A DNA stretch of 63,349 bases, the filler included, from Asterionella formosa (lineage: Eukaryota), in NCBI GenBank assembly GCA_002256025.1. It is 7 parts of 7 records of this genome, joined end to end, with 100 filler letters (N's around TTAATTAATTAA, not from the genome) between each part and the next. Parts side by side here need not be neighbours in the genome. Positions count along the whole stretch, not along the records: positions 38,847 to 58,163 come from NKIB01003737.1; 6 more parts are not named here. One strand, 5' to 3'. Shown here piece by piece: positions 11,029 to 59,458 of this stretch. Numbering within the stretch: position 1 is the first letter of the stretch; each line of letters begins with the position of its first letter. The notes under the pieces are model-generated. The model worked only from the letters and a program-made list of their open reading frames with translations, was not told the origin of the DNA and made no database searches. Position numbers and translations under genes: made by a program.

Positions 11029-11617
11029 TGAATAACAGGCGGTACGTATGTATGGATGTGCGCACATCTGCCGAGATTGAAATAACGACGTCATCGTGTG
11101 GAAAACCCGGAGTTCAAAGGATCCATTTGCCAGTGACAGCAACAAACCTGACATGACCCCGGGGATTTTGCTGTACCTAGTACCAGTAGGCTCAACAACT
11201 GTACGAGTACATATTCGTGTAATAAATATGCTTATTCATAACGGAATACCGAGGACTGAACTATGTTTTTACTTGCACATCGGTATGTAGAAAGCTGTTG
11301 CATGCGAAAGCGAGCAGACCAATAATATACCGATAGGTGTGACAACTGTCGAACATGGTTTGCCTGACAAACGAACCCCATTTTTTATTTGCAGATGAGC
11401 TCATCATACGTAGACTAGTGTTGTGTTCAGGCGCTCGGTTTGGTTTTAATTGAGGTTGACTTCACAGGGAGCAGCAGTTGAGGGAGAGCTTGCCTCGCAA
11501 CGAGCTCAAACGACGAATTCAGATTGCCGGTGCCATTTTGCCCGTTCGAACAGTGACTTACTATATTTTACTGTCGCAGGCTTTGGAATCTTTTTCAAGC
11601 ATATGCAACCAATCAAC

Positions 11618-14600
11618 ATGAAGTCATCGTCTCTTGCCATTTTGGCCCTTTTGGCAGCTCACAATAGCCATGCCTTCAGTCCAGCAGTTATGAGGAACAA
11701 TCGACGAAGCACCTCCGCAGGATCTCATAATAAGGTCGGACCACTTTCTATGAATCCACCGGAGAATAGTGACGAGATGAAGGATATCCCGATCGACGAC
11801 GTGACTGCCCAAGCCGAAGCTGCCTTGAGCGCGGCCCGAGATTTCCTACAGAATAAAGATGTCACTGAAGAAACAGAAACTGCATTCACAGCAGCTCAAG
11901 TTGCTCTGTTGAAAAAAGAAGAATCCCTTATTGATCCCGACTTCGGGGATGAAGGCCAGGATGCCGTGTCAAACGAACCCCTGATTGACGCTGATATGGT
12001 AGATGAAGCTCAGGAAGCCCTCGAAAAGCTAGCTTCGGGACAAATAGATGCGTCGTTCTTTGAGGAGACAATCGGTAGCAAAGAAAGAACTATCAAGAAT
12101 GAAATTCAGAGCAGGGAAGATTCGAAGCGCTCCAGTGAAGCGTTGGCTAGTGCAGTTGGTGCATTCGTAACTGGTGCGGCCTATAGTGCGTTTTCAGATA
12201 TTCAACAAACCGACACTGTTCCTCCAATCGTGCCACCACTAGTGATTGGTGGACTTCTTGGAGGCGCGACCTATTTGAGTTCCAACTCTGACTCGGGGTT
12301 TTCTCGTATAATCCGACGAACCCTGGGTAGGGTAACAATTATTGTGGGATCGGCACTTTCCAGTTATGCTCAATCAGCCGCCAACGCTACAGTCTCAAGT
12401 GTTCAGTCTATTCCTTCCAAGATCGGTGAAGCTATTGCGCAAACGGCAGGTGAAGTTGCCAAGATTCCCAACAAGGTAGGAGCCGCTGCTCAGCGCAAGA
12501 TCAAGGAAACAGCAAATGAGATTTCCAAGATTCCTGGGAAAGCAGCTGATGCCGCCTTGGAAGCAGTCAAGGAAACGGCAGACGAGATAGCAAGGATTCC
12601 CGGAAAAGCAGCTGATGCTGCCAAGGAAGCGGTCAAGGAAACGGCGGAAGAGATCGCCAAATTTCCTGGCAAGGCAGCTGATGCAGCGATAGGAAGGGTC
12701 AAGGAAACAGCTGAGGAGATTGCCAAGATCCCTGCCAATGCAGCTGGTGCTGCCAAGGAGAAAGTAGAAAAAATTAACAACGCTGCTAAGGAGAAAGCAG
12801 GGGAGATTGCCATGATTCCCAGCAATGCAGCCGCAGTGGCAAAGGAAAAGGTTATTGAGTGCACTGACTTGACCAAGAAACGCGTTAACAATGCGGCTTC
12901 GGAGACGAAACGAAAAATCAGTGACGCTATCGAAGAAGTGACTGCATTGCCCAGACGCGTAGTCAACGAACTACAAGAGGCATTCGATGATTTGACCGGA
13001 CCTGAAGACAAGCAATTACCGGTACCTCCCAAATTGCCCCCGCCACCGTTGACACAGGCGGAATCGGATTCATCGAAGATTGACTTTCCAAAGATCAACC
13101 TTCCCGAGATTGAACTCTCGAAAATAAAATTAATCCCTTCACTGCCACTGTCCGATACTCCATCTTCCGAGCTTTTTCCTACTGCATCTCAACAGGAACA
13201 ACCTAGATTCAAGCTTCCAATTATTGAGCCTCCGAAAATGAGTCTTCCAATGATTGAACTTCCGAAGGCAGAAAAACGCGAGAAGAAAGAAGAAGACAAC
13301 TTTGTCTTTTCCGAAACCTCGTTGCAGGAGTTTATTGGCAGACTCAACGTTGGATTGTCAGAAGAAGACAATATCAGCAACAGTTTAGCAAGTATAGCCG
13401 ATGTATCCAAGCGTAGCCTAGGAAGAAAAGCCGACGGGACGAAGAAGGAGCAAGAGGCAGCTGACTTCAAAAGGAAGGCCGAGTTGGAACGAAAAAAGAA
13501 AGATCTTGAACAAGCCGCGCTAAAACAAACTCAAGAGCAAGATCGTCTTGCGAAGCAGCAAGAACAAGAAGAAACCCGACAGCGTCAGGCAGCGAAGCTC
13601 GAAGCAATTACGAGAACAGTTTCTGATGCTCGAAAATATAGAGAGGAAGAGCGACTCGCCATGCTCCAAGCTCGTCGAGAGGAAAGCCTCGCCAGACAGA
13701 AAGCTCTTGAAGAGTTTCGGCAGAGAAAGAAGGAGGAGCGTCAAGCTATAGCGAAAGCAAGGGAGAACGAACAACTTGAGAAGCTGCAAGCTGAAGAAGT
13801 TGCTCGCCAGAGACAGGTAGAGGAGCGTGCTCGCCAGGCACAAGAGAAGGATCGCCAAGCTATGGTAATAGCTGCAGAGAACGAACTCCTTGCAAAGATG
13901 AAGGATCAAGAAGAAGCGCGCCTGCGAGAAGGGGCGCGTCTTGCGAAGCAGCAAGCTCAAGAAGAAGCTCGCCAGAAACTGATAGAGGAGCGTGAAGCAA
14001 TGGCAAAAGCTGCAGAGCAAGAACGTCTGACAAAATTGAAATCACGTCAGCAAGCGCAAGAAGAGCGCATTGCGGCTATTGAGAAGAAGCGTCGCGAGGC
14101 GCAAGCTATGGCGAAAGCAGCGGAGAATGAACGACTTGCAAAGTTTCAAGCGCAAGAAGATGCTCGTAAGCGACAGGTAGAGGAGCGTGCCCGTCAGGCG
14201 AAAGAAAAAGAGCGACAAGCTATGGCAGCAGTTGCAGCGAAAGAGCGGCTTGCAAAGTTGAAGGCTCAAGAAGAAGAACGCGAACGACTATTGGAGGAGC
14301 GCAGGGCACTCGCAGTTGCCGCAGCCGAAGCTCGCCAGCGAGCAGATGACGAGCGCATTGCTGCGATTGAGGAAAAGCGCCGCGAAGCACAAGAAAAAGA
14401 TGCCACGGATAGAGCCAAGAAAGTAGCATCGTCGACACCAGTGATCCCAGCCGCTTCGACGAGTCAACTGTTTGGCCTTGGCACTCCGAAATCGGAGTTC
14501 GAAGCTCCATCGAGACCTGTGGTTCAACCTGAGAAACTTGCTTCCGCTCCACGTGGAGTCCCCACAATTTCTAGTTGGAAAAAGAACCGTGATGGGTCTA

Positions 14601-16771
14601 TCTCTGGTAGAATCAGTGGATCTCCCAACTTCAACGACGGGGATGTTATTACAACCTCTCCAATCGGAGGCGAAGCAGCTGATGGGGGAGTAGTAGTACA
14701 GACAGCTTCTGGCTCCAAATATTACTTGGAGGTAAGGAAGGCACCGTTTGGATTCAGTTTCTTTGGGAACAAGGAAACGACTTCTACTAGTCCCGATCCG
14801 GTAACGAAGGTCTCTGATGTGTCTGTTTCTGCTGGTCGTAGCGAAATAGAGGAGCGGTCTCGCCAGGCGCAGGAGAGGGAGCGTCAAGCTTTGGCGAAAG
14901 CAGCGGAGAATGAACGACTTGCAAAGTTTCAAGCGCAAGAAGATGCTCGTAAGCGACAGGTAGAGGAGCGTGCCCGTCAGGCGAAAGAAAAAGAGCGACA
15001 AGCTATGGCAGCAGTTGCAGCGAAAGAGCGGCTTGCAAAGTTGAAGGCTCAAGAAGAAGAACGCGAACGACTATTGGAGGAGCGCAGGGCACTCGCAGTT
15101 GCCGCAGCCGAAGCTCGCCAGCGAGCAGATGACGAGCGCATTGCTGCGATTGAGGAAAAGCGCCGCGAAGCACAAGAAAAAGATGCCACGGATAGAGCCA
15201 AGAAAGTAGCATCGTCGACACCAGTGATCCCAGCCGCTTCGACGAGTCAACTGTTTGGCCTTGGCACTCCGAAATCGGAGTTCGAAGCTCCATCGAGACC
15301 TGTGGTTCAACCTGAGAAACTTGCTTCCGCTCCACGTGGAGTCCCCACAATTTCTAGTTGGAAGAAGAACCGTGATGGGTCTATCTCTGGTAGAATCAGT
15401 GGATCTCCCAACTTCAACGACGGGGATGTTATTACAACCTCTCCAATCGGAGGCGAAGCAGCTGATGGGGGAGTAGTAGTACAGACAGCTTCTGGCTCCA
15501 AATATTACTTGGAGGTAAGGAAGGCACCGTTTGGATTCAGGTTCTTAGGGAACATAGCAGCTCTTAATGTACCTTCTTCGGCTGCCCGAGAAGCGGCCGA
15601 CGACGCATCAGCAGCTGAGAGAAGCCGTAAGGCCGCCGAGATCAAGGCTGCTTTTGAAGCCATGACCGAGCAACGTAGACTCCAAGCAGAAGCTCTGGTA
15701 GAAGCGACGAAACAGGAAAAAGAATCTCAACGAAAGGCTATTGAGAAAAAGAGGCGTGAGGCGGCAGAAGCCAAGGCTGCGGAAGCAGAAGAAAAGAGGG
15801 CGAAAGCAGTACAAGCTGAGGAAATTAGAATCCAACAAGCCGTGGCGAGAAAGGCGGCTGTTGAAGCTGCCCAGGAGGCGCGTTCTGTACCAAAGCTTGC
15901 TGCTGCTCCCCGCGGAGTTCCTACTATTGTTGATTGGAAGCTGCGACGAGATGGTGGCATTGACGGCATGATCTTTGGATCCCCAAACTACGATGATGGC
16001 GAGCGAATCGAGACGTCCGCAATTGCTGATGGTGAGATCAGCAATGGGTGCGTTGTGAAGACCGCATCAGGTAGTCGATACTTCTTGAGTGCCGACGAAA
16101 AGATCAAAAATCAAAATAGAAAAGCTGCAGTGAAAGCAATGACATCGGCCAAGGCAGGTGCCACAATCTCGCTTGCCGCACGTATGGCTGCTGCTGCTGC
16201 TGCCGCTACTACTATTCCAGTTGCTCCTGCTCGTCCTGTACCAAAGCTCGCTGTAGCTCCTCGCGGAGTTCCTACTATTGTTGATTGGAAGCTGCGACGA
16301 GATGGTGGCATTGACGGCATGATCTTTGGATCCCCAAACTACGATGATGGCGAGCGAATCGAGACGTCCGCAATTGCTGATGGTGAGATCAGCAATGGGT
16401 GCGTTGTGAAGACTGCATCAGGTAGTCGATACTTCTTGAGTGCCGACGAAAAGATCAAAAATCAAAATAGGAAAGCTGCAGTGAAAGCAATGACATCGGC
16501 CAAGGCAGGTGCCACAATCTCGCTTGCCGCTCGCACGGCTGATGTTACTCCCAGTCCGGAAAAGAAGGCTGAACCGAAGCGTGCCCCTAGAGGTGTCCCC
16601 TCCTTGAGGAGATGGAGGAAGAACGGAGACGGCTCAATAACAGGGTTTATAAGTGGATCGCCGAACTTCGCCGAAGGTGACCTGATCACCACCAGTCCAA
16701 TTGTCAAAGGAATGGTTACGGCTGAAGAAGTGGTGCAGACTGGAAGTGGATCAAAGTACTTTCTCGTGTGA
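11618..16771 (+). CDS. Large (~1717 aa) predicted plastid-targeted repeat/coiled-coil protein with five copies of a ~60-aa domain; function unknown
   Basis: ATG at 11618 gives MKSSSLAILALLAAHNSHA-FSP (signal peptide, Phe at +1, Arg/Ser-rich transit peptide). Followed by two hydrophobic segments, 22-aa amphipathic repeats, an E/K/R/A coiled coil and 5x APRGVP.(I/L)..W...DG.I.G.I.GSPN(F/Y)..G..I.TS.I...VV.T.SGS.Y(Y/F)L. Confidence 0.85.
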   Translation: MKSSSLAILALLAAHNSHAFSPAVMRNNRRSTSAGSHNKVGPLSMNPPENSDEMKDIPIDDVTAQAEAALSAARDFLQNKDVTEETETAFTAAQVALLKKEESLIDPDFGDEGQDAVSNEPLIDADMVDEAQEALEKLASGQIDASFFEETIGSKERTIKNEIQSREDSKRSSEALASAVGAFVTGAAYSAFSDIQQTDTVPPIVPPLVIGGLLGGATYLSSNSDSGFSRIIRRTLGRVTIIVGSALSSYAQSAANATVSSVQSIPSKIGEAIAQTAGEVAKIPNKVGAAAQRKIKETANEISKIPGKAADAALEAVKETADEIARIPGKAADAAKEAVKETAEEIAKFPGKAADAAIGRVKETAEEIAKIPANAAGAAKEKVEKINNAAKEKAGEIAMIPSNAAAVAKEKVIECTDLTKKRVNNAASETKRKISDAIEEVTALPRRVVNELQEAFDDLTGPEDKQLPVPPKLPPPPLTQAESDSSKIDFPKINLPEIELSKIKLIPSLPLSDTPSSELFPTASQQEQPRFKLPIIEPPKMSLPMIELPKAEKREKKEEDNFVFSETSLQEFIGRLNVGLSEEDNISNSLASIADVSKRSLGRKADGTKKEQEAADFKRKAELERKKKDLEQAALKQTQEQDRLAKQQEQEETRQRQAAKLEAITRTVSDARKYREEERLAMLQARREESLARQKALEEFRQRKKEERQAIAKARENEQLEKLQAEEVARQRQVEERARQAQEKDRQAMVIAAENELLAKMKDQEEARLREGARLAKQQAQEEARQKLIEEREAMAKAAEQERLTKLKSRQQAQEERIAAIEKKRREAQAMAKAAENERLAKFQAQEDARKRQVEERARQAKEKERQAMAAVAAKERLAKLKAQEEERERLLEERRALAVAAAEARQRADDERIAAIEEKRREAQEKDATDRAKKVASSTPVIPAASTSQLFGLGTPKSEFEAPSRPVVQPEKLASAPRGVPTISSWKKNRDGSISGRISGSPNFNDGDVITTSPIGGEAADGGVVVQTASGSKYYLEVRKAPFGFSFFGNKETTSTSPDPVTKVSDVSVSAGRSEIEERSRQAQERERQALAKAAENERLAKFQAQEDARKRQVEERARQAKEKERQAMAAVAAKERLAKLKAQEEERERLLEERRALAVAAAEARQRADDERIAAIEEKRREAQEKDATDRAKKVASSTPVIPAASTSQLFGLGTPKSEFEAPSRPVVQPEKLASAPRGVPTISSWKKNRDGSISGRISGSPNFNDGDVITTSPIGGEAADGGVVVQTASGSKYYLEVRKAPFGFRFLGNIAALNVPSSAAREAADDASAAERSRKAAEIKAAFEAMTEQRRLQAEALVEATKQEKESQRKAIEKKRREAAEAKAAEAEEKRAKAVQAEEIRIQQAVARKAAVEAAQEARSVPKLAAAPRGVPTIVDWKLRRDGGIDGMIFGSPNYDDGERIETSAIADGEISNGCVVKTASGSRYFLSADEKIKNQNRKAAVKAMTSAKAGATISLAARMAAAAAAATTIPVAPARPVPKLAVAPRGVPTIVDWKLRRDGGIDGMIFGSPNYDDGERIETSAIADGEISNGCVVKTASGSRYFLSADEKIKNQNRKAAVKAMTSAKAGATISLAARTADVTPSPEKKAEPKRAPRGVPSLRRWRKNGDGSITGFISGSPNFAEGDLITTSPIVKGMVTAEEVVQTGSGSKYFLV
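14109..15540 (+). repeat. Near-identical intragenic duplication (14109-14757 / 14892-15540; period 783 bp)
   Basis: About 649 bp copied; one synonymous difference seen (AAA/AAG at 14581/15364). Near-identical shadow ORFs offset by 783 in the ORF track. Confidence 0.93.
15881..16530 (+). repeat. Near-identical intragenic duplication (15881-16179 / 16232-16530; period 351 bp)
   Basis: PKLA.APRGVPTIVDWKLRRDGG...KAGATISLAA repeated with only a few nucleotide changes. Confidence 0.92.
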
Positions 16772-19325: not shown

Positions 19326-19425
19326 NNNNNNNNNNNNNNNNNNNNNNNNNNNNNNNNNNNNNNNNNNNNTTAATTAATTAANNNNNNNNNNNNNNNNNNN
19401 NNNNNNNNNNNNNNNNNNNNNNNNN
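19326..19425. other. Artificial contig linker (N-run, TTAATTAATTAA, N-run)
   Basis: 100-bp linker with stops in all six frames; identical linkers at 38747-38846, 58164-58263, 59459-59558, 60756-60855 and 62053-62152. Confidence 0.98.
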
Positions 19426-19577: not shown

Positions 19578-20710
19578 ATGGGCAAAGAAGGAGGCGCTTC
19601 TACTACTTTGTTGGTGAGTGTTAATGCAGTTCTCAGATTTTGCTTGAATACAAAGCCAACGATGAAAGCAATACTCTCACCCTCTCACCCGATTTCTTTC
19701 CATTTTTATGTCCTTCTCATCTGGCCCAACACGTTGTTCTGTTCTTGACATATCCTCATATCCTCACTCAGACGGCTTTGGTCGTCGCCTGGTACTTTGG
19801 AAACACTGTGTACAATGTTTATAACAAGAATGCGGCCAACCAGCTTCCCGCCCATTGGTTCCTGGCTTCAGCTCAGCTTGTTGTTGGCATCGTCATTAGT
19901 TGCTTCTTATGGGCAAGTGGATTGAGGAAGACACCAAATCTTTCCCGTAGCGACATCATGGCTTGCCTTCCTATCGGTTTATTCGCGTGTCTCGCGCATT
20001 GTGGAACAGTTCTTGCTTCCGCCGTTGGAGCAGTGAGCTTCGCTCAAATCGTCAAGGCTTGTGAGCCTGTGTTTGCTGCTATTGTCGGTGTTCTTGTTCC
20101 ACCCATGGATGTCAAGCCTATGCTAGCTTATATGATGCTGCTTCCAATTGTCGGAGGCGTTGGTCTAGCATGTGTCAAGGAGGGAAAGGGAGTCGATATC
20201 AATGTTGCCGCATTCGCATTTGCCTCTATGGCGAACGCTGCGGCTGCTTTGAAGGGCAAGCTCGGTTCTTCTATCACCAAGGCTTTGGAGGCCGACAAAT
20301 CCAAGAATATGGACGCTGCCAACGTTTATGGTGTCATGAACATCATTTCTTTCATATTCACGGTCCCCTTTGTTATATACAATGAGGGTGCCACCCTTTC
20401 TGAGGTCTGGTCGCAAGCTGCCTCAACGCACGGTGCGAACGCAATTCTCACGAATATTTTGATTTCTGGATTCTTTTTCTACTTCTACAATGAAGTGGCT
20501 TTTGCTTTCACGGCTCACGTGGGATCTGTTACCTCATCTGTATTGAACACTGCTAAACGTGTTATTATCATCGTTGTGTCGTCTGTCCTTTTCCAGGAAG
20601 CTATGGAGCGCAACACTGTCATTGGATCTGCCATTGCTATTGGAGGAACTTTTGCATACTCGCTTACTTCTTCAGGCAAAAAAGTGGCACCCAAGAAGAA
20701 GACAGCCTAA
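19578..20710 (+). CDS. Triose-phosphate/phosphate translocator (TPT) family protein, copy 1; exons 19578-19613 and 19772-20710
   Basis: WYFGNTVYNVYNK, VSFAQIVKACEPVF, YFYNEVAF, SVLNTAKRVIIIV. GTGAGT...CAG phase-0 intron 19614-19771; no presequence. Confidence 0.92.
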
Positions 20711-22053: not shown

Positions 22054-23163
22054 ATGGCCCCTAAAGAAGCAGCATCTCCCGCCAAACTCGTAAGTTGAAT
22101 AACCATTCCTCGTCGAGCTTGTTCCATCGATCCACTGCGAACGAAAAGCAGGAATAGAATCGGGGAATCGGCGAATCCATTCCGATCTAATGAACTCATG
22201 TAAACTGTTTCCTCGCGGCAGGCCGGTTTGGTCGTACTCTGGTATTTCGGCAACACTGTCTACAATGTCTACAACAAGCAAGCAGCCAATATGATCCATG
22301 CCCATTGGTTCTTGGCCTCGGTTCAGTTGATTGTCGGCATCGTCTTGTCGCTTGTCATGTGGGGAACTGGACTTCGCAAGACGCCCAACCTTACTGCCGC
22401 TGATATCGCTTCCTGCATCCCTATCGGTCTCTTTGCTGCGCTCGCACACTGCGGATCCGTTCTGGCCTCCGCTGTCGGCGCGGTCAGCTTTGCTCAGATC
22501 GTCAAGGCTTGTGAGCCCGTCTTTGCCGCCGTGGTCGGACTTCTTGTCCCGCCAATGGATGTTAAGCCGTTCCTTGCGTACGTGATGCTTATTCCTATTG
22601 TCGGTGGGGTTGGGCTGGCATGTATCAAGGAAGGAAAGGGGGTTGACATTAACATGGAAGCCTTTGCCTTCGCTTCCATGGCAAACGCTGCTGCCGCATT
22701 GAAGGGAAAGCTAGGATCGTCCGTCACCAAGGCGTTGCACGCTGAGCCATCCAAGAATATGGATGCTGCCAACGTATACGGTGTTATGAACATTATCTCC
22801 TTCTTCTGCACTATCCCTTTTGTGGTCATCACGGAGCTTCCTACTCTCCAGTCCGAGTGGGACGCTGCCGTTGCCCAGCACGGGTTCAACGCCCTGGTGA
22901 AGAACATTGTCCTTTCTGGATTCTTTTTCTACTTTTACAACGAAGTGGCATTCGCGTTCACTGCCCACGTCGGAGCCGTCACTTCCTCAGTCCTCAACAC
23001 GGCGAAGCGTGTGATTATCATTGTTGTTTCGTCAATCATTTTTTCAGAAGCAATGGAGCGCAATACCGTCGTTGGATCTGCCATTGCGATTGGAGGAACG
23101 TTTGCGTACTCGCTTACCTCGGGTGGCCATGGCCATGCGGCACCCAAGAAGAAGGCCGAGTAA
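22054..23163 (+). CDS. TPT family protein, copy 2; exons 22054-22089 and 22222-23163
   Basis: Same motifs as copy 1. GTAAGT...CAG intron 22090-22221 at the same position (after codon 12, phase 0). Confidence 0.92.
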
Positions 23164-42305: not shown

Positions 42306-43028
42306 GAGGTGGGCTGAGGGAAGTGGGAATTGAAATGGGTGAGAAAGTCGGAGTCGGACAAGTGAAAAGAGCGGCTAGTGGTGTCCGCCATGGTGTTATG
42401 AATCCAAGGAATAAAGTGAATTTGTTGGTGGTACCGATGTTGCCGTTGGTGAAAGGAGGCTAGGCGTAACAAGTAGGCATGGGCTGACGTGGTGGTGGAA
42501 GACCCCTTGTGTTGCCAAGCAACAGTGGCGAGATTGTCGCAGCCACTACTTGTGGTGAGTTCAGCGGTGTGATGGGCGGAGGTTAGGATGTCTTGGTGTG
42601 CGATAGTTGCTGCCAGTTAAAAATCCGAGTTTGTCACCCGCCAGAGCGATGATGGGCGGGAGAGGGGAAGGAGGGAACCAGACTCCTCCCATACCGTGTC
42701 CAGAAGCGTCACACGCGCCAATGAAAGTAGGTGGAGTGGGGACAAGTTCGCAGAAACAGGCGGGGCGTGTGTGCAACTGGTTAACTATATGTTTAAATCT
42801 GTCAAGAACAGGTGCACCGCGGCCGTAAGTTTCACGCAATTTGAGGTAGCTGACGTTAGCGCATGTTGGAAGAGACTAAATAAACCGCGGCTGCCGGGAA
42901 CCCGGTAAAGGAGGCGGGGTGAAGGTCTTGAGGAGGATTGAGGTGATGAGTTCGTCAAATTTTGGTACGGGGACCGTCATGGGCAGGGAAGAGATGTGCA
43001 CATTACTGAAATAAAGATGGAGCCATAG

Positions 43029-44569
43029 TTAGACCCAACGCAGTATTTGTGCGGGGAGTGACGGTGTTCGGTCCATTTCGGTCCAGTATTCCATGATGAG
43101 CATTTCTTGGGCCTTGAGAAAAGTGATGAAGGATCGGTAGGCAGTGGTGAGTCGATGATAGGGACCGAGTACTTCGCCAAGGATCACTGTGAAGGATCTC
43201 AGCGTGATTAGTGCGTGCCACATCGAGGTTGGCAACGGAATTTTGGATGCAGCTTGCTGTGCTTGAGTGTCGTGGAGCGTGGTGCCCATGCCTTGATGGA
43301 GATCAGCGGCCATGGATGTCACTTCACGCAACAGGGCGTTGGCATCCTGCGATGTGTAAGTGAATAGAAAAGGTTGGAGGCCCGTGTTGAGGTCCGTAAC
43401 GTTTCCAACAAAGTCACATCGTGTGATGAGAGCGACAATCTGTGTAGTGGCCACCGGTATTTGTGAATGCTCAATGGATTCCTGTGCTGCTCCAATGGTG
43501 AAGCGGTGTTGTACCACTTGTGCCTGTTCGTGTTTGAAACAATTTGCTAGCTCATGGTATAACAGGGGAAGGTGTATTTCATTTTCGACTTCGCATATCT
43601 TTAACAAGAGGGGTAAAAGGCCTCGGAATTTAGCGGAAGGTAGCTGTGGTGTAATGACATCGGACTTTTCGCTGTTGCGCCCAAGCCTATTTGCCAAAGC
43701 GGCTGCCATTGCTGCAGCAAAATGCTCCGGGGTCATGTTGTTTGTTGAGACGTCAGGCAATTTTTGTTGGACTTGTGGAAAATCCAGCGCTATTTTATGG
43801 GCGGCATACGTGGCTAGATGACCAGCTAGGGGTACGACATATTTGAGAGCTGTTGTCGCCACAATATGGATGCGACTTTCAGGGCCACCATCATCAGGTC
43901 TGCCCCAGCAGTTGGCAGCCCGCAACCAAGTGAGTAGGTCGGCGCACTCCCTGGTGAGTCCATCCTTTTTTATAGCGCCACCTATCTCTAGCCAGGCTTG
44001 TGCAGCCGGGATTTGCCGGCTTACTAGCATGGCGGCATAACGGGGTGGTAGATATACAGTGTTTCGCACTGTAATGTAGTCAGTATATTGACCATAAAGG
44101 GAGTTTCCAGCCGCATCAGACATGGGGCCCATGAACTCTCCCTTTTCATCAGAGTGTGGCTCCCAATTGGCTAATGCTTCATCCATAGTTGGGAGGGTGG
44201 GAGCATACACCGAACCTGCAACCGTAAATGCCTCAGGAGCGATGTGTACCAAGGGTATCTGGTTTGCGGTGATGTCTCCAAGAATTCCGAATAGTTTGTT
44301 ATCCCAAGGGGAGGATTCGGTGAAAGATCCTGGGTAGCGGAAGATACGATGCACACAGGCGATGTTTACTGTGTCATTCACGCGAAGGGCGACAGCGAAA
44401 GCTTGATGCGTGGACTCACCGCACTAACTATTCTGTTTGCCAATTTTGTGGCATTGAGCCCCTCCGGACCCAAAGCGGATGTGACCTCATAGATGCGGCG
44501 ATAATCACCATCAAAGCAGTCGAAGTCCGGGTCTCGGAAGCGCAAGGCGTAATCGCCCACAGACGTCAT
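43029..44569 (-). pseudogene. Gag-like ORF1 of the YR retroelement
   Basis: 450-aa ORF plus a 63-aa upstream piece in another frame. Assigned by position upstream of RNase H/YR, not by motif. Confidence 0.6.
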
Positions 44570-45009
44570 TTCACAAAGGATGTGACACTCCAGTTCGATG
44601 TGTGTAGGTGTCGACTGTGAAGGAGGAATGCAGCTGCCCAGTGGCGAAGCAAATGGATGACAGTGTTTATGCTTTTTTCGGACGACTGTCTTGGTGTATT
44701 AACGCAATGTTATCCTTCCGTTGGCTCCTGAGCTTGCTTTCGTAGTCAGCACTGCTCGAGCCAGTCTTCCGTTTCAACAAGGTTGCTTTCGAAGTCAGCG
44801 GTTTTGATGAAATAATGGTTCTTTTTTCTTTTCAACTGCCGGAGGTTGAGGGGTGTGGTGCTGGGGTATGCTGACGTGTTTTGCTACGTCACTCACATCC
44901 CAGGCTACAGTAACATCGATCTGTTGTCGTCGTTCATGAAGTTGATTTTGCTGCTCGTTTCTTGTTTGCTTTGTTGCTCTGTCGTTCGCTATGTTGAGTC
45001 TATCTCGAG

Positions 45010-45593
45010 ATGAGTGACGATGAAATGGTGAAAGAGAGCAATGTAAATATCACCCTTCTCAGCAGCAGTCATGAAGCTAGGGAGTCTGTAGAGTGGAGGG
45101 GAAAGATTGTTCCAGCTTTGAACCGCGCTATCTATAAATTGACTGATGAAGATAGCATTGATTCCCCAGATCCAATGACTGGTAAACTTTCCTATCACCC
45201 TCGTCATACATCTGACCCTGACCTTCAATTGTGCATTGCCTTGATTACATTCTACTACCATGCTCTTGAATGTACAATCTTCCAAGAGGCGGCAAGAAAA
45301 AGACTGCCTAGCCATCCAAAAATTGTGCAAAATGATTCATTTCACCGAGCATTGCTTGCATTTTGTTATGTGTGCGTGCGCAAGGGATTTTCTGCTTGTG
45401 CAAAGCTGCGACTTTCAGAGAGGCACCAAGGCATGGAACTCTGCCATATCCTTCAACTTCTTGACCTACACCTTATTCCTATCTGAAGGTGAGTGAGTCC
45501 GTTATGTTGGCATTGACGTTTGACAGATTCAAACCAAAGATCGCACTTCCTTCAGAGCAAATCATTGAAGAAAGCATCATTGAAATTGCGTAG
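45010..45593 (+). pseudogene. Retinoblastoma-related (RB pocket A) gene fragment inside the TIR element
   Basis: FYYHALECTIFQEAARKRLPSHPKIVQNDSFHRALLAFCYVCV follows RB_A LYY..LE.....E.......L....FHR.LLAC. After a frameshift near 45468 it continues PYSYLKVSESVM...LP...IEESIIEIA*, like RB F...KVIE.F...LP....IEE.ILESLAW. Confidence 0.75.
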
Positions 45594-46194
45594 ACGTGAG
45601 GTAGAAAGGCGAGCCACCAATGAGACAACATGAGGACGTGTTTTAAAGGCTGGTTGCATCAAAAAAATAATTATAGTAGCCCATGTAGCGCTGGTACAAA
45701 ATATTATCCTTATCCCTACCATAGGAAGGAATATCGCGCCGATTTGTTTGCTTCGATCAGCTTACCATGTTGCTCAATATTGCCGCCGTTTCCTGTGCAA
45801 AAGTGATTCCCCTAAGGCTTTTATATTCGTTTGTGCAGTCATGAGTGAAATGAATATGATAATTCATCTGAATGGGAAGAGAAATGTGTTCCATTGAAGA
45901 GGCTACTAAGTAAGAAATGGAAGCTGGGGTAATGATGGTCAAAATTTTCTTGATGGTCACCACGTAAATTCATCTAGTAGTGGTAGTAGTCATTCACCTC
46001 AACTATTAGAGAAAGAAGTTACTCTACATGCTGCCTTTGATTCAAATAGTAAAATTACTATGACTGGTCTAGGAGATGAATTAAATTCAAGGAAAAGGAG
46101 AAGGACAAGTGAACAACAAGAAGGAGTGGAGAAGAAGAAGGCAAAGAAGTAGGCCAACTAGTAGACTATTATTGCTAGGGGGGGGGGGTTGATG

Positions 46195-47368
46195 AATCAT
46201 CAGAACACTATTTGTTAGATAATTCGAACATGGGGAAAAACAGAAGGCTACTGGTCCTATCAGCAAATGGTATTGCAGCTTGAAGATTGCATTGATGTTC
46301 TCAAAGTACTCAACCCTCAATTCGATTTCTTGTTTCTTATTGATCACTCCTGTGGGCACAACCGTCAGAAAGAAGATGGCTTAAATGTGGAACGAATGAC
46401 TAAGTCCTATGGAGGTGCCCAAAAACGGTTGAGGAAAATGGCAAACACATGGTTACCTGGGACCTCACTTACCTTAGATGAAAAAAACGCAATCAATGCA
46501 ATCAATGTTTTTCAGAATAGATGACACCGGACCATTCTGGATGACTGAAGCTGAACGAGATCAAAAGCGACATGACTTGGTACTGGAAGGGCAAACAATC
46601 ACAAGACAATACACAAAGGATGAGTTCCTTAAACAACTAAGGCAAAGAGGAATGTTAGCAAAGGGTAAGAAGCAAGCAATACAGTCTAAGGCGCAAGAAC
46701 ACAACTTACCAATTGAAGAGACTAAAGCAAAAGTTATCAAAGGATGGGAAAATAAACTAAAGGGTATGTTGCAGGTACTTTGGGAGCGTGGATTTATTGA
46801 CGAATTGAGATTGGAGAATTACACGTTGAATGAAAAGCAGGATGCATTTGGATTTGTGCAGAAAGATTTTTCTTTGAAGTCGCTGAAGGGAAACTGTCTT
46901 GATTTCGAGGAAGAGGAGACACTATTGCAGTCAATGGGAAGGGAAATGGGAGTACTTGTTGACCGAATGCCGAAATATCACTGTGAACTTGCAGGAGAGG
47001 AGGGAATCGAGTATTCTTGGAGTTGCGCCAAGAATTTTTACCGTCGGATTTCTCTGAAGAGGAAAAAGGGTAAAGAGAATTCAGGTCTGTGGTGTGAGAG
47101 AGCATGTCAACAGAAATAGTGTTAACAACAAAAAGGAAAAGACATTTTTCAAGGCAAGCAAGACAATATATATGTGCATACTTCAAGATTTGGAAAGATC
47201 TGGACGAACAAACAACATGACAGGATGGACGCCGAAGTTAACACAGCAACACATGAAGCGGACCCCATCAGTGTTGAGAAGATTGTCAAACAAATCAAAA
47301 CACACCGCTGTGCTCTCGATTTCGACACAACGTTCTGCAAGGCAACCTATGTCAAGGATCTAACATAG
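46195..47368 (+). pseudogene. C-terminal part of a Tc1-like DDE transposase, frameshifted
   Basis: EGYWSYQQMVLQLEDCIDVLK, LIDHSCGH, GGAQ, KGMLQVLWERG, PKYHCELAGEEGIEYSW..AK; the first-Asp region is missing. The stop codon lies inside the right TIR. Confidence 0.85.
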
Positions 47369-47587
47369 CGAACAACAGAGCAACGAAGCAAACAAGAAGC
47401 AAGCAGCAAAATCAACAAACATGAAGGACGACAACAGATCGATGTTACATACCTTTTGAGGGGAGATGAGCGCAGGGCAGTATATATATATATATCAAAG
47501 AATTTGCATCAATTTTTGTATGCGTCACAATTTTTACTCTAAATTATTAAATGAAAAAGAAAATCTATACTGAGGCCTCCTTCCAGT

Positions 47588-49053
47588 GGGCGCTGCGCGC
47601 TCTGATAAGAAAATATTATTATATCATGTGTGTATTATAACACAAATTATTCTGGTGATCTGCTACATAATATCGTCCTTGCGCTCTGATAATAGAGATA
47701 TTTTAGACTACTTCTCTGACTTCATATATATTTTTAACTTTAATTTTCAACAGTTAAATTTTCATATCGATGCATCCTCTTGTATGCTAGTACGCCGCCT
47801 CTTGTTCATTATGTGCATGAGCTCTATATATTCATCATCGTCGGTCACTGACCATGTCGACTTTCATCTCATCTCCTGATAATGATGACTTATGATCACA
47901 TTGCTACTGTTAGCAATGTGCTATCCACCAGTAAATAGGATGCCATTGTTCAGGGAAAGTTTGACTGTTGATGAGGTCAGAAGAAGAAGTGGCAAAATCC
48001 GTCGCCACGCACTACAGCATCCATTGTCGAGTCCATTCTGGACTTTGTTCAACAGCAAGCATGATGATGCTCTGATTACCTTGTGTGGGTTTGACCATGC
48101 TTCTTTCGAGCTCCTACACCAGCTGTTCAAACCTTGTTTTTATTCCTTCACTCCCTGTAGGAAAAATACGGATTTCATTGTTAGAAATTCAACAACAAGG
48201 GAAAGTCTCGTTGTGCTGTGATGCAACAACTTCCCATTCATGGGACCCAATTGGCAGGTGAGTAGAAATGGTTTCCAGCAATGAGAGAATCTCATTGATC
48301 CTGAACTGTTAGACCCAACTCTGCATGCTTCGGCGACCTCTTGGAAACCTCGGTGCTCGCCTGGCAGTTGCCGTTCTTGAAACTGAACTAGTAGGAGCAC
48401 GTGAAAAATCGTTGTTGTTCCTTGATGGGGACTGAGTAACCCCAGAAACACCAATCTGAGAAACACCTGGGACACCTATCCTACTGTCCTCATTGTCACT
48501 GGCAAACTCATCAGCACCAGTGTCATCTTCATTCTCGTCGTCGTCCTCCTCCTCTTCTTCTGGTTGAGTCTGTTCTTGTTGTTCTTGTTGCTGGTGACGG
48601 CGACGTTCAAGCAGCCTTGGAGAGGAAGGGAAGCCCTCCCTGGCTGCTCTCCTTTGACCAGAAGAAGATGAAGACATTGCCAAAATCTAAAAGCGATGAC
48701 GATCGATTTATTGAGGAGGTTGATTGATATGTAACGATATGCATATGTATATGCATACCTATTTTGGCAAGAGCAAGCCATTTTGAGTATGAGCAAGCAA
48801 GTCTTGAAATATTCCGGGAAATTCTATATAGTCATTCATGTCTAAACATCTTTTTATATAATGCACTGTTATTTATAACTGTAAAAAATTTGTGTTTGTG
48901 TTGACCAAATTTGGTAATCCTGGTAGGCACCCCGAGGTGCTTACGAGGTTTGCCAAATTTGATCAACACAAACACAAATTCTGGGGTCATGGGTACAACG
49001 ATTTGTGTTATAATACACATGATATAATAATTTTTTATTATCAGAGCACGCCC
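47588..49053. mobile_element. PIF/Harbinger-like deletion derivative with two convergent gene remnants
   Basis: ~55-60-bp TIRs beginning GGGCG (GCTCTGATAA..AATATTATTATATCATGTGT..ATTATAACACAAAT). Plus-strand transposase N-terminus 47892-48190 (SPFWTLFNSKHDDALITLCGFDHASF); minus-strand accessory ORF 48683-48190 ending in a Myb/SANT-like (DUF6818-like) LLETISTHLPIGSHEWEVVASQHN after a premature TAA. Confidence 0.78.
48887..48980. repeat. 94-nt near-perfect palindrome (hairpin)
   Basis: AATTTGTGTTTGTGTTGACCAAATTTGGTAATCCT-G-GTAGGCACC-CGA-GGTGCTTAC-G-AGGTTTGCCAAATTTGATCAACACAAACACAAATT. Confidence 0.92.
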
Positions 49054-49751
49054 ACTATTAGTCGAATTTGCGATTTGATTGCGTTGATGGTCCGTTTTGA
49101 TCGCTTCTGTTGTGGTTTGTCGTTCTGTGCTTTCGTTTCGGTTCGATTGTATTTATCTACGCAAGGGCTGATGTATGTATGAATGTCTACTCTTTGAAGA
49201 TGTGTTGTTGCTGATCTTATTTGTTGATTTGTATAGCTAGTCATTGACCATGATGTCAATATTGCCGCCAAGGAATGCTTTTCTTGTTCTAACCCGCTTT
49301 GCTACCTTTCTACTCAGAGTTTGTATCACAGGATATGTATCAATATTCAGCTAGGGGGAGTCGACAGTGCTGGAGCAGCCTGGCAATCACCCTTGCTCAC
49401 CAGAATGGAATGGAATGATCAGGGTTGTTTGGTGGGAGGAATGACTGCCTGTGGTCGGACGCATTCTTGCTACTTCTGTCAGGCTACAGCAAAATCCATG
49501 GTTGGTTGCAGCAACCAGATCATTAACACTACATAACAATACAGATCTCAATTGGGTTCAGCTTTTTTCTTTTCTGTATTATTTCGCTCCTCGATTGTGT
49601 GAAAGAACAAAGTTTCTAAACCAAAATAGAAAAGTCCTTCTTGCCATTCCTAATCCCTGACACTAAAAATCTCATGCAAATGTTTTGAAGGATTTTGACA
49701 GATATTTGTTTTTATGTCAACTTGCCTTTATATGAATCAATCCCAGTCCAC

Positions 49752-49860
49752 CAGGTTTACCAAATTTGGTCAACACAAACACAAATTTTTGGATTATGGG
49801 TACAGCGATTTGTGTTATAATACACATGATATGATAATATTTTATTATCAGAGCGCGCCC
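49752..49860. mobile_element. Second, orphan right end of the same Harbinger-like family
   Basis: Diverged direct copy of 48947-49053, ending TCAGAGCGCGCCC. Confidence 0.8.
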
Positions 49861-50395
49861 AATAATGCGTTTGCCTTTTAACTCAAATATTATTTCAGTT
49901 TTTGTGTCAATAATCTTACTTTCATTCGTTTTGATGATGGTTTTATATAGATTTATATAGGGATTATTGATCTTCAGGTTGCAACCAGCCTCAACTGGAC
50001 GGAAAAATGTGGATGATTTAGCTCTACTGATACCTGGTACCATCGATGAGGTATTGCAGTAAAAATACTACCAGTTGTACTTTATGCTGATAAATTGTCA
50101 ATCAAATCTTATAGTAGTATAGCTAGCAGTATTAAAACAACCACACTGATACTGTATTAATGGTAATGTACAAAGCATGGTGATATGGTCATAGATAGCC
50201 AGAGCATTACTCCTAGCAAGTATTTGGCTGAATGATATAGAGTAGGGAAGAGCATCAATCTAGTGATAAAGTATATGCAAATGTACTAGTATATGGTTAT
50301 TATTTAATTAAATAGATAGAAAGTGAATGAACATTTAGACTTCTTGCAAGTTTGCTGATGCTTCACCATCTTTCAAAATGGCAATAAGCATTGGA

Positions 50396-58263: not shown

Positions 58264-59458
58264 GCAGTTGGATTCAAGTATGAGACTCGAAGGAAACATT
58301 ACTTTGTCGATGGTCATGAGAAGGCAGACACCTTAGCCTACCGTCGAATTTTCATTGCTGAATACTTCAAGAAAGAGGTTAATGCTCCAAGGTGGGTACA
58401 TTTTACAGCAGAAAAATCTAAACTTCTAGAGTCACAAGGTTTAGTTGTCAAGAATACTGGATTTCATTACAGTGACCATGATGGAACCAATGGTAGAATA
58501 TCATGCAGACAACTTTGATACCTCACCGGATCTTCCAATGGGAGGCAATTGTAGTGTGCGAAAGAAAAATGACGAGCAAACTGTTATGATTGTTGGACAG
58601 GATGAAGCAATATTCAAACAATTCTTGTTGAATTCCAAGATGTGGACAGGTCCGAATGGCGAGAGACCCCTACTACCAAAAGATGAGGGTTCTGGAGTAA
58701 TGATCAGTTCATTTATCACTCGAGAGCATGGCTTGATAAGAGAAATCGATGACTATATTCTTACAACGGTCAATGCCAATAGACTTGGAGCAAGTTATGC
58801 AGATGAGGAAGCTGCAATTGACGTACATGGGACCAAAAAGAAGAAGCCATTGACAAAAAAAATTCTCCATTCTTGGTCTACTTTGATTATGGAGAAAATC
58901 GAGATGGCTACTGGAATTACAATCACATGGTGTGTCAATTCGAAGACACAATTGATGTACTGAAAGTGATGCATCCACACTATAAGTTTGTTTATCTATT
59001 TGACCATTCAAGTGGACACAGCAAACATAGACCTGATGGATTGAGTTCAATCAGGATGAAAAAAACCTTTGGTGGAAAGGGGTTGCCCATGCGATTGACA
59101 ATCATTGAACAAGAAGCAGGATTCCTTGACCCCTTTCAAAGAAAATTACAGCCTGGTCAAACACAGCACCTCACATTCCAACCTGATGATGTGGGCCCAT
59201 GTTGGATGACTCCTGCTGAACAAGAAGCAAGTCGACATGATGCCATCATTGGAGTACCCAAAGAAATTCAAAGAAGTCGTGCCCAATTAATATTCGATCT
59301 TGCTGCTAAGGGAGCCAATACTAAAGGGAAGAATAAAAGCGATCTGGTGTTCCTCTGTCCACAATATCAAGTGCCAACATCGACACAAATTTCAAGGGTC
59401 AAGGAAGGTTGGGAAGGAAAATCGAAGGGATTAGTTCAAGTGCTTTGGGAAAGGGGAT
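58264..59458 (+). mobile_element. Tc1-like DDE transposase fragment, same family as 46195-47368, frameshifted
   Basis: YFVDGHE, VGQDEAIF (first Asp), PKDEGSGVMISSF, YGENRDGYW, LFDHSSGH (second Asp), KGLVQVLWERG; fills the whole contig. Confidence 0.88.

Follow-up and report, generated by a model that had tools for sequence, protein, structure and literature searches.

The sequence analysed here (hereafter the window) is a stretch of 63,349 nucleotides (nt), filler included, from the Asterionella formosa assembly GCA_002256025.1. Its part derived from record NKIB01003737.1 contains, at 44908-47449, a transposon with terminal inverted repeats (TIRs) which encloses DNA derived from a retinoblastoma (RB) gene together with a dead transposase. 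A preliminary description of this locus had proposed a Pack-type, non-autonomous TIR element with host RB-derived cargo, and our analysis supports this view. The element is probably a single-copy Pack-TIR that was made by repair-associated copying and is now decaying. The locus is built up from the following features, in which positions in amino acids (aa) refer to the full-length RB protein P0001 or the transposase P0020:

44906..44907, no strand: TA adjoining the left end, a putative target-site duplication (TSD), read directly
44908..44995, plus strand: left TIR, first letters CAGTAACATCG, found by repeat search and end-to-end alignment
44998..45551, plus strand: RB piece 1, P0001 aa 707-898 (most of pocket A and the sequence ahead of it), from Pfam RB_A and tblastn
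45538..45642, plus strand: RB piece 2, P0001 aa 1145-~1170 (from the end of RB_B to shortly past it), from tblastn
45643..45873, plus strand: the element's own 5' leader, with the likely transposase ATG near 45840, from the match to protein P0172 and from depth
45855..46212, plus strand: N-terminal transposase coding sequence, ending at the poly-G deletion junction
46204..47365, plus strand: C-terminal third of the transposase (P0020 aa ~634/650-1007 of 1015), from tblastn
47362..47449, minus strand: right TIR, reverse complement beginning TGTAACATCG, one base shorter and with a different tip
47450..47451, no strand: TA adjoining the right end, read directly
47450..47577, no strand: 128 nt outside the right TIR that travel with related copies

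The inverted repeats and the RB cargo

A repeat search of the window returned two inverted-repeat blocks, 44910-44938/47420-47448 (29 nt, 97%) and 44941-44995/47362-47416 (55 nt, 93%). Aligned end to end, both blocks merge into imperfect TIRs of about 88 nt that are ~90% alike. The TIRs of ~88 bp with TA outside, as given in the preliminary description, are thereby borne out (TA at 44906-44907 and 47450-47451). On the left, TA is followed by CAGTAACATCG; on the right, the reverse complement reads TA followed by TGTAACATCG, and the outermost bases of the two tips differ. The window holds no second copy of 44908-47449. With a chance expectation of 1 in 16 for a 2-bp match and no empty site observed, the TA supports insertion only weakly.

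The cargo is, as judged from protein similarity, composed of two RB pieces: one takes in the sequence ahead of pocket A plus most of that pocket, the other a short conserved stretch right after pocket B. The open reading frame (ORF) 44998-45483 matches Pfam RB_A above the cut-off (E = 1.9e-6, 28.3 bits against 25), with ORF residues 78-127 aligned to positions 78-127 of the 196-position profile. This ORF is 68% identical, over 96% of its length, to the full-length RB proteins P0001 and P0002, which carry both RB_A and RB_B, and it is 58-59% identical to P0003 and P0004. In tblastn searches of the window P0001 (1298 aa, with RB_A at aa 795-930 and RB_B at aa 1004-1145) gives three collinear matches: aa 707-869 on 44998-45465 (frame 1, 68%), aa 871-898 on 45468-45551 (frame 3, 79%) and aa 1145-1170 on 45538-45615 (frame 1, 69%, E = 4e-4). 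The end of pocket A, the spacer and pocket B (aa 899-1144) are absent from the cargo. Since the matches switch from frame 1 to frame 3, a frameshift of 1 base lies near 45466. Two of the three motif groups on which the RB assignment had originally been based are true RB matches, the second of them after this frameshift; the third (IEESIIE, with TAG in place of Trp) is a wrong-frame reading, and the true frame 1 gives RB aa 1145-1170 instead.

RB piece 1 has 8 codons fewer than its relatives, an ATG at 45010 and a stop at 45484. The overlap of up to 14 nt between the pieces (45538-45551) fits either of them, and such an overlap would be compatible with microhomology. With RB_B absent, the frame broken and stops present, the RB stretch is a gene fragment and not a gene. 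The same fragment is represented in another sample by P0182, which differs from the window in 2 of the first 102 residues and then carries another frameshift. A search for relatives near the window ORF (P0181) returned only P0181, P0182 and one relative. The full-length RB protein of the host is absent from the protein collection, in which the best long match is 68% identical.

Two truncated elements, or an element beside an RB pseudogene, might also bracket an RB duplicate by chance, without any capture inside a single element. Nested repeats indeed fill the region to the right, and sequence of the left-TIR type appears rarer than the right end. Against such bracketing stands the position of the cargo: the first RB match begins 3 bp past the inner end of the left TIR, and the left flank 43660-44997 holds no RB homology (tblastn of P0001-P0004, E ≤ 10). 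Both element parts that flank the RB DNA also have the orientation and order of one element (see below). We therefore regard chance bracketing as very improbable and return to the capture of RB DNA inside one element. Elsewhere in the window, tblastn of the RB proteins gave only scattered rows at chance level (E 1.1-9.6).

The carrier transposase and its older deletion

The preliminary description had left ~600 bp behind the RB fragment unassigned and had the fragment replace the 5' part of the transposase. Neither statement holds. P0172 (368 aa, from a cluster of 60 sequences) matches the leader with its aa 14-89 (45646-45873, 84%), and it also matches 45855-45908 and 45910-46131 before passing the same junction as the window into 46232-46381; P0172 aa 90-199 are missing from the window. 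ORF 45910-46149 has 9 relatives, which match 43-84% of the ORF at 83-93% identity. P0177 and P0175 instead extend to a motif that full-length relatives conserve near their N-terminus (E = 1e-4 for P0177 aa 263-300 against P0038 aa 161-194). Because of the matches to P0172, P0177 and P0175, we read 45643-46212 as the leader and N-terminal coding sequence of the element, both of which are thus still in place. P0172 has 13 non-RB residues directly upstream of the RB/leader changeover point, so the RB DNA replaced part of the leader and not the 5' part of the transposase.

The 3' part of the transposase is present as originally described (46204-47362); in tblastn the remnant 46204/46243-47362 shows frame changes and a stop. 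Altogether, aa ~1-240 (with gaps) and ~634-1007 are left, the coding sequence is frameshifted and the first catalytic D is gone. The gap of aa ~240-634 goes back to an older deletion at a poly-G tract and not, as had been supposed, to the RB insertion: the window shares the junction near 46190-46212 with the related metagenome loci L001 and L003 and with P0172, and these three are RB-free where readable. L004 is intact there. The poly-G tract at 46180-46212, read as LLLLGG, is itself a recurrent deletion breakpoint, with at least three different junctions in different copies; in P0171 and P0176 the junctions at LLLLGG differ from that of the window.

A search with a 22-mer of the TIR returned four metagenome loci, all of them right ends, which match from 46095, 46204 or 46986 to ~47577 at 90-94%. 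RB homology was found in none of the four. The right TIR is conserved in all four, and so are the 128 nt past it (89-94% identity). Since this flank is shared, the related copies are orthologous or segmentally duplicated and not independent insertions. After the 128 nt, L002 and L003 match 49965-49990, from which we infer that 47578-49964 is later inserted repeat DNA with inverted repeats of its own.

The carrier belongs to a large family. In a phmmer search of 1.84 billion representative proteins, ORF 46478-47116 had 1547 relatives at E ≤ 1e-3, 602 at 1e-10 and 55 at 1e-30. The window ORF aligns with aa ~735-930 of full-length relatives, which measure ~900-1280 aa. At E ≤ 0.01, a Pfam transposase or RB family was found in 0 of 15 relatives, and the same holds for DDE_3, Transposase_1 and HTH_Tnp_Tc3; a SAP domain was found in 1 of 15. 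Nothing consistent appeared among 15 A1 members at E ≤ 10. The transposase ORFs of the window match no Pfam transposase family either, and a profile search of sequences in the PDB gave no match (best E 1.7). The Atlas offered clusters bearing DDE_3 as leads only (0.87-0.90), and in one close cluster Bacillariophyta is the commonest phylum. Such transposases might normally begin with an RB-like stretch, but this reading was rejected, given RB_A in 0 of the 15 relatives and the identification of the true N-terminal region.

For P0009 (503 aa), an AlphaFold model built on an alignment of 43 sequences reached a predicted local distance difference test score (pLDDT) of 86.3 and a predicted template modelling score (pTM) of 0.82. 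Foldseek alone was weak (best match Mos1, E = 0.049). When the best 1000 Foldseek chains were re-aligned with VIA, the top six were all transposases of the IS630-Tc1-mariner (ITm) type, with 173-190 residues aligned and Z 11.5-12.6: SETMAR/Hsmar1 (Z 12.6, 173 aligned, 3.9 Å), Mos1 (Z 12.1-12.5) and Sleeping Beauty (Z 11.5). HIV integrase (9.7, root-mean-square deviation 8.8) and TnsB (7.9) followed in the next rows. Residues 256-296 of the P0009 model match SAP domains in the VIA alignments.

The invariant residues D551, D683 and E897/E904 of P0020 are the putative catalytic triad, in which the second D and the E are spaced by ~214-221 residues; the insert of ~215 aa between them holds the SAP domain. 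In ITm transposases the second D is usually followed by the third D or E after ~34-41 residues, with 82 in Sailor, and the tip of Tc1 is of the CAGT type. Like Mos1, Hsmar1 (SETMAR) and Sleeping Beauty, the carrier thus combines the predicted catalytic core fold with TA flanks and a CAGT-type left tip. Unlike them, it measures ~1000 aa, has no DDE_3 or Transposase_1 match and has a D-to-E spacing of ~215 residues with SAP. The earlier assignment to a Tc1/mariner-like element accordingly stands with respect to fold, TA flanks and TIRs, but not with respect to a Pfam family match or a short D-to-E spacing. In sum, the modelled fold and the TA flanks support a Tc1/mariner-like carrier. Among the papers listed by a literature search and judged by title and abstract, none reports a SAP-bearing ITm-like transposase, and none contains the term 'SAP domain'. 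The carrier family (~1000 aa, no Pfam model, mariner-like fold, SAP insert) may be the more useful by-product of this study for the annotation of algal genomes.

A second, more diverged remnant of the carrier family lies at 58264-59457 on the plus strand. It corresponds to P0020 aa ~432-833 with frame changes, keeps both D residues and sits exactly between two N blocks.

Copy number, transcription and origin of the cargo

Logan contigs of four samples (X1 and X2, which gave DNA contigs; X14, polyA RNA; X8, a lake metatranscriptome) were placed on 42500-49500 at ≥90% likeness, with the longest of about 39,700 pieces listed. Word depth in X1, a sum over all contigs that cannot be read as a copy number, amounts to 521-1128 over 45074-45541 in the RB part (exact flank contigs: 275-390) against at least 90,000 to its right (92,540-416,668 over 45542-47413, with ~170,000 over the leader, and up to 1.2 million further right). 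From this contrast it follows that the RB DNA is present in one or few copies and that everything to its right is highly repeated. The depth of the RB part is single or low in X2 as well. The cargo has thus not been mobilised to several sites, which places it in the single-copy class, and the multicopy cargo considered in the preliminary description is not supported.

Several contigs join the left parts of the element. An X14 contig (44751-45287, 0 differences) and an X8 contig (44725-45287, 2 differences) run from the flank through the left TIR into the RB DNA, and an X2 DNA contig (44957-45287, 0 differences) joins the left TIR to the RB DNA. Since no listed contig crosses 45642/45643, the link between RB and leader rests on the assembly of the window. 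Could the flank, left TIR and RB DNA have been fused by the assembler to a non-contiguous right part at the start of a high-copy repeat? The repeat does start at ~45542-45643, where depth jumps ~150-fold, exactly in the region of the uncrossed junction. In contrast, the left TIR pairs with the right TIR in the expected orientation and at the expected distance, the DNA after the RB pieces is the leader of the same family in the correct orientation, and X14 RNA depth goes on at ~68 over 45542-45775. An assembly join is therefore very improbable, and a contiguous element remains the preferred reading.

The contigs also point to the parent gene. A 1578-nt polyA-RNA contig of X14 covers 45258-45550 with 11 differences and 3 gaps (~96%) and continues with ~1284 nt unlike the window; the same 11 differences are carried by a 264-nt DNA contig of X1. 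On sequence grounds these variant contigs look like an expressed parent RB gene. Another X14 RNA contig tracks the window to 45642 and then departs into other sequence (a loose end), which sets the right end of the cargo at 45642. Beyond this point there is a faint resemblance between a proline-rich reading of the contig and the C-terminal RB region of P0001.

The transcript over flank, left TIR and RB DNA is most likely read-through or the leader of a neighbouring gene, and not a functional RB product. The minus strand carries the longest ORFs of the flank (43032-44423, 464 aa, no Pfam match), so the RNA could be the leader of a minus-strand gene with the RB DNA in antisense. Under an exaptation scenario, the transcribed RB fragment, possibly antisense within a leader stably transcribed in wild lake populations, would act on the mRNA of the parent RB gene by way of double-stranded or small RNA; alternatively, a pocket-A peptide of 158 aa would be produced. 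Such a scenario could draw on RNA contigs from two studies (X14 and X8) that span flank, TIR and RB, on a depth of 75 for the fragment contig that is comparable to the 117 of the parent-like contig, and on the ~96% identity to the parent over 45258-45550. However, the contigs carry no strand information, the frame is broken differently in two samples, and the cargo lacks pocket B as well as the end of pocket A. Being single copy and decaying, the cargo is unlikely to affect RB regulation. Likewise, the two independent frame breaks (window and P0182) argue against a translated pocket-domain decoy, which had been suggested earlier and which, with pocket B absent, is unlikely. Of the explanations weighed here, exaptation seems to us the least probable; if true, it would provide a transposon-made regulator of a G1/S gatekeeper in a diatom, on an undescribed SAP-bearing branch of Tc1/mariner-like elements.

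The origin that we consider probable, repair-associated copying, would have started from a non-autonomous copy, internally deleted beforehand, in a large DDE family that is Tc1/mariner-like by fold. A break in the 5' leader, beside the left TIR, would have been repaired by copying from two separate places in the host RB gene (first aa ~707-898, then ~1145-1170) before the repair returned to the element. Both the two-piece cargo and the poly-G junction that recurs in deletions suggest that templates were switched during repair, and the likely route would be such switching, or gap filling, with short microhomology. The outcome would be ~645 bp of RB DNA in place of part of the leader. The copy with cargo has not multiplied and is decaying; neutral decay and read-through transcription would have followed the repair. 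The data show how the locus is built, that its cargo comes from RB, is low in copy number and has decayed in frame, and that the older deletion is shared with other copies, while the mechanism of repair, the order of events and the nature of the transcript are deduced.

Some observations weigh against this scenario, in addition to the nature of word depth and the uncrossed RB/leader junction. The tip of the right TIR is unlike that of the left. An empty TA site was not seen: a joint skipping 44908-47449 is absent among the 15 joints listed out of 96, and no empty-site-like join came up when both flanks were compared by blastn with the window and with the metagenome loci. The 128-nt flank, shared and itself repeated, weakens the claim of recent TIR-to-TIR mobility, and copies may spread or be inherited together with this flank instead. 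Finally, what is said here of breakpoints, microhomology and intron state is deduced by comparison with RB proteins that are 58-68% identical and belong to other species.

The capture of host genes by TIR transposons is established in animals and plants. A survey in animals (PMC8277862) gives 370 Pack-TIRs, 115 of them TcMariner; single-copy Pack-TIRs are there ascribed mostly to transposition-independent gap filling with microhomology, and many Pack-TIRs are transcribed and chimeric with neighbouring genes. Low-copy Pack-Mariners of rice are reported in PMC8903248. On these two accounts, capture by ITm elements is not as seldom as the preliminary description had stated. With the animal Pack-TIRs (PMC8277862) the element shares a TIR structure, host-gene filler, single copy and junctions compatible with template switching; it differs in its algal host (probably a diatom), its ~1000-aa, Pfam-less, ITm-like carrier and its two pieces of one gene. 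Pack-Mariner and Pack-TYPE elements of rice and maize (PMC8903248) are likewise TA-flanked, mariner-type and non-autonomous, with gene fragments and mostly low copy. They derive from short Stowaway-like elements, whereas the present carrier keeps a transposase remnant of ~1.7 kb.

Among the papers listed by our literature search and judged by title or abstract, none reports RB capture by a transposon in diatoms, in agreement with the preliminary description. For algae, the locus offers a clean, datable case in which a TIR transposon captured DNA of a host gene. Pack-MULEs and Ds-like deletion derivatives combine internal deletion with foreign filler and are ascribed to abortive gap repair. Pack-MULEs are often multicopy with TSDs of 9-10 bp, unlike the single-copy cargo and 2-bp TA found here. 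Transduplication has reportedly also occurred in Turmoil-1 of C. elegans.

Surrounding sequence

In the left flank, 44731-44799 is a direct repeat with 49-nt spacing; it coincides with contig breaks and loose RNA ends at 44729 and 44768, which may reflect variation in repeat number or splicing. Further left, over 43767-44015 and 44467-44608, contigs that are 7-10% different occur at ~2x the depth of the exact contigs in the same sample and may stem from a diverged second haplotype or from duplication of the left flank. To the right of the element, 47588-49057 and 49750-49864 are occupied by nested short TIR elements (inverted repeats of 48 nt, 83-85% alike; direct repeat of 115 nt). At an X1 word depth of ~1 million they are the most abundant repeat in 42500-49500. 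ORF 47889-48218 has no Pfam match.

Six paired N blocks, all with the same layout (44 N, 12 bases, 44 N), which may be gaps or masked stretches, are located at 19326, 38747, 58164, 59459, 60756 and 62053. The region upstream (3969-36582) contains ordinary host genes, namely a tRNA U5-methyltransferase, HSP70, PTPS, PhyH, a Sec7 protein and an SMC protein. A 1773-aa ORF at 11450-16768 has no Pfam match, and two triose-phosphate-transporter paralogues adjoin each other at 19625-20707 and 22204-23160.

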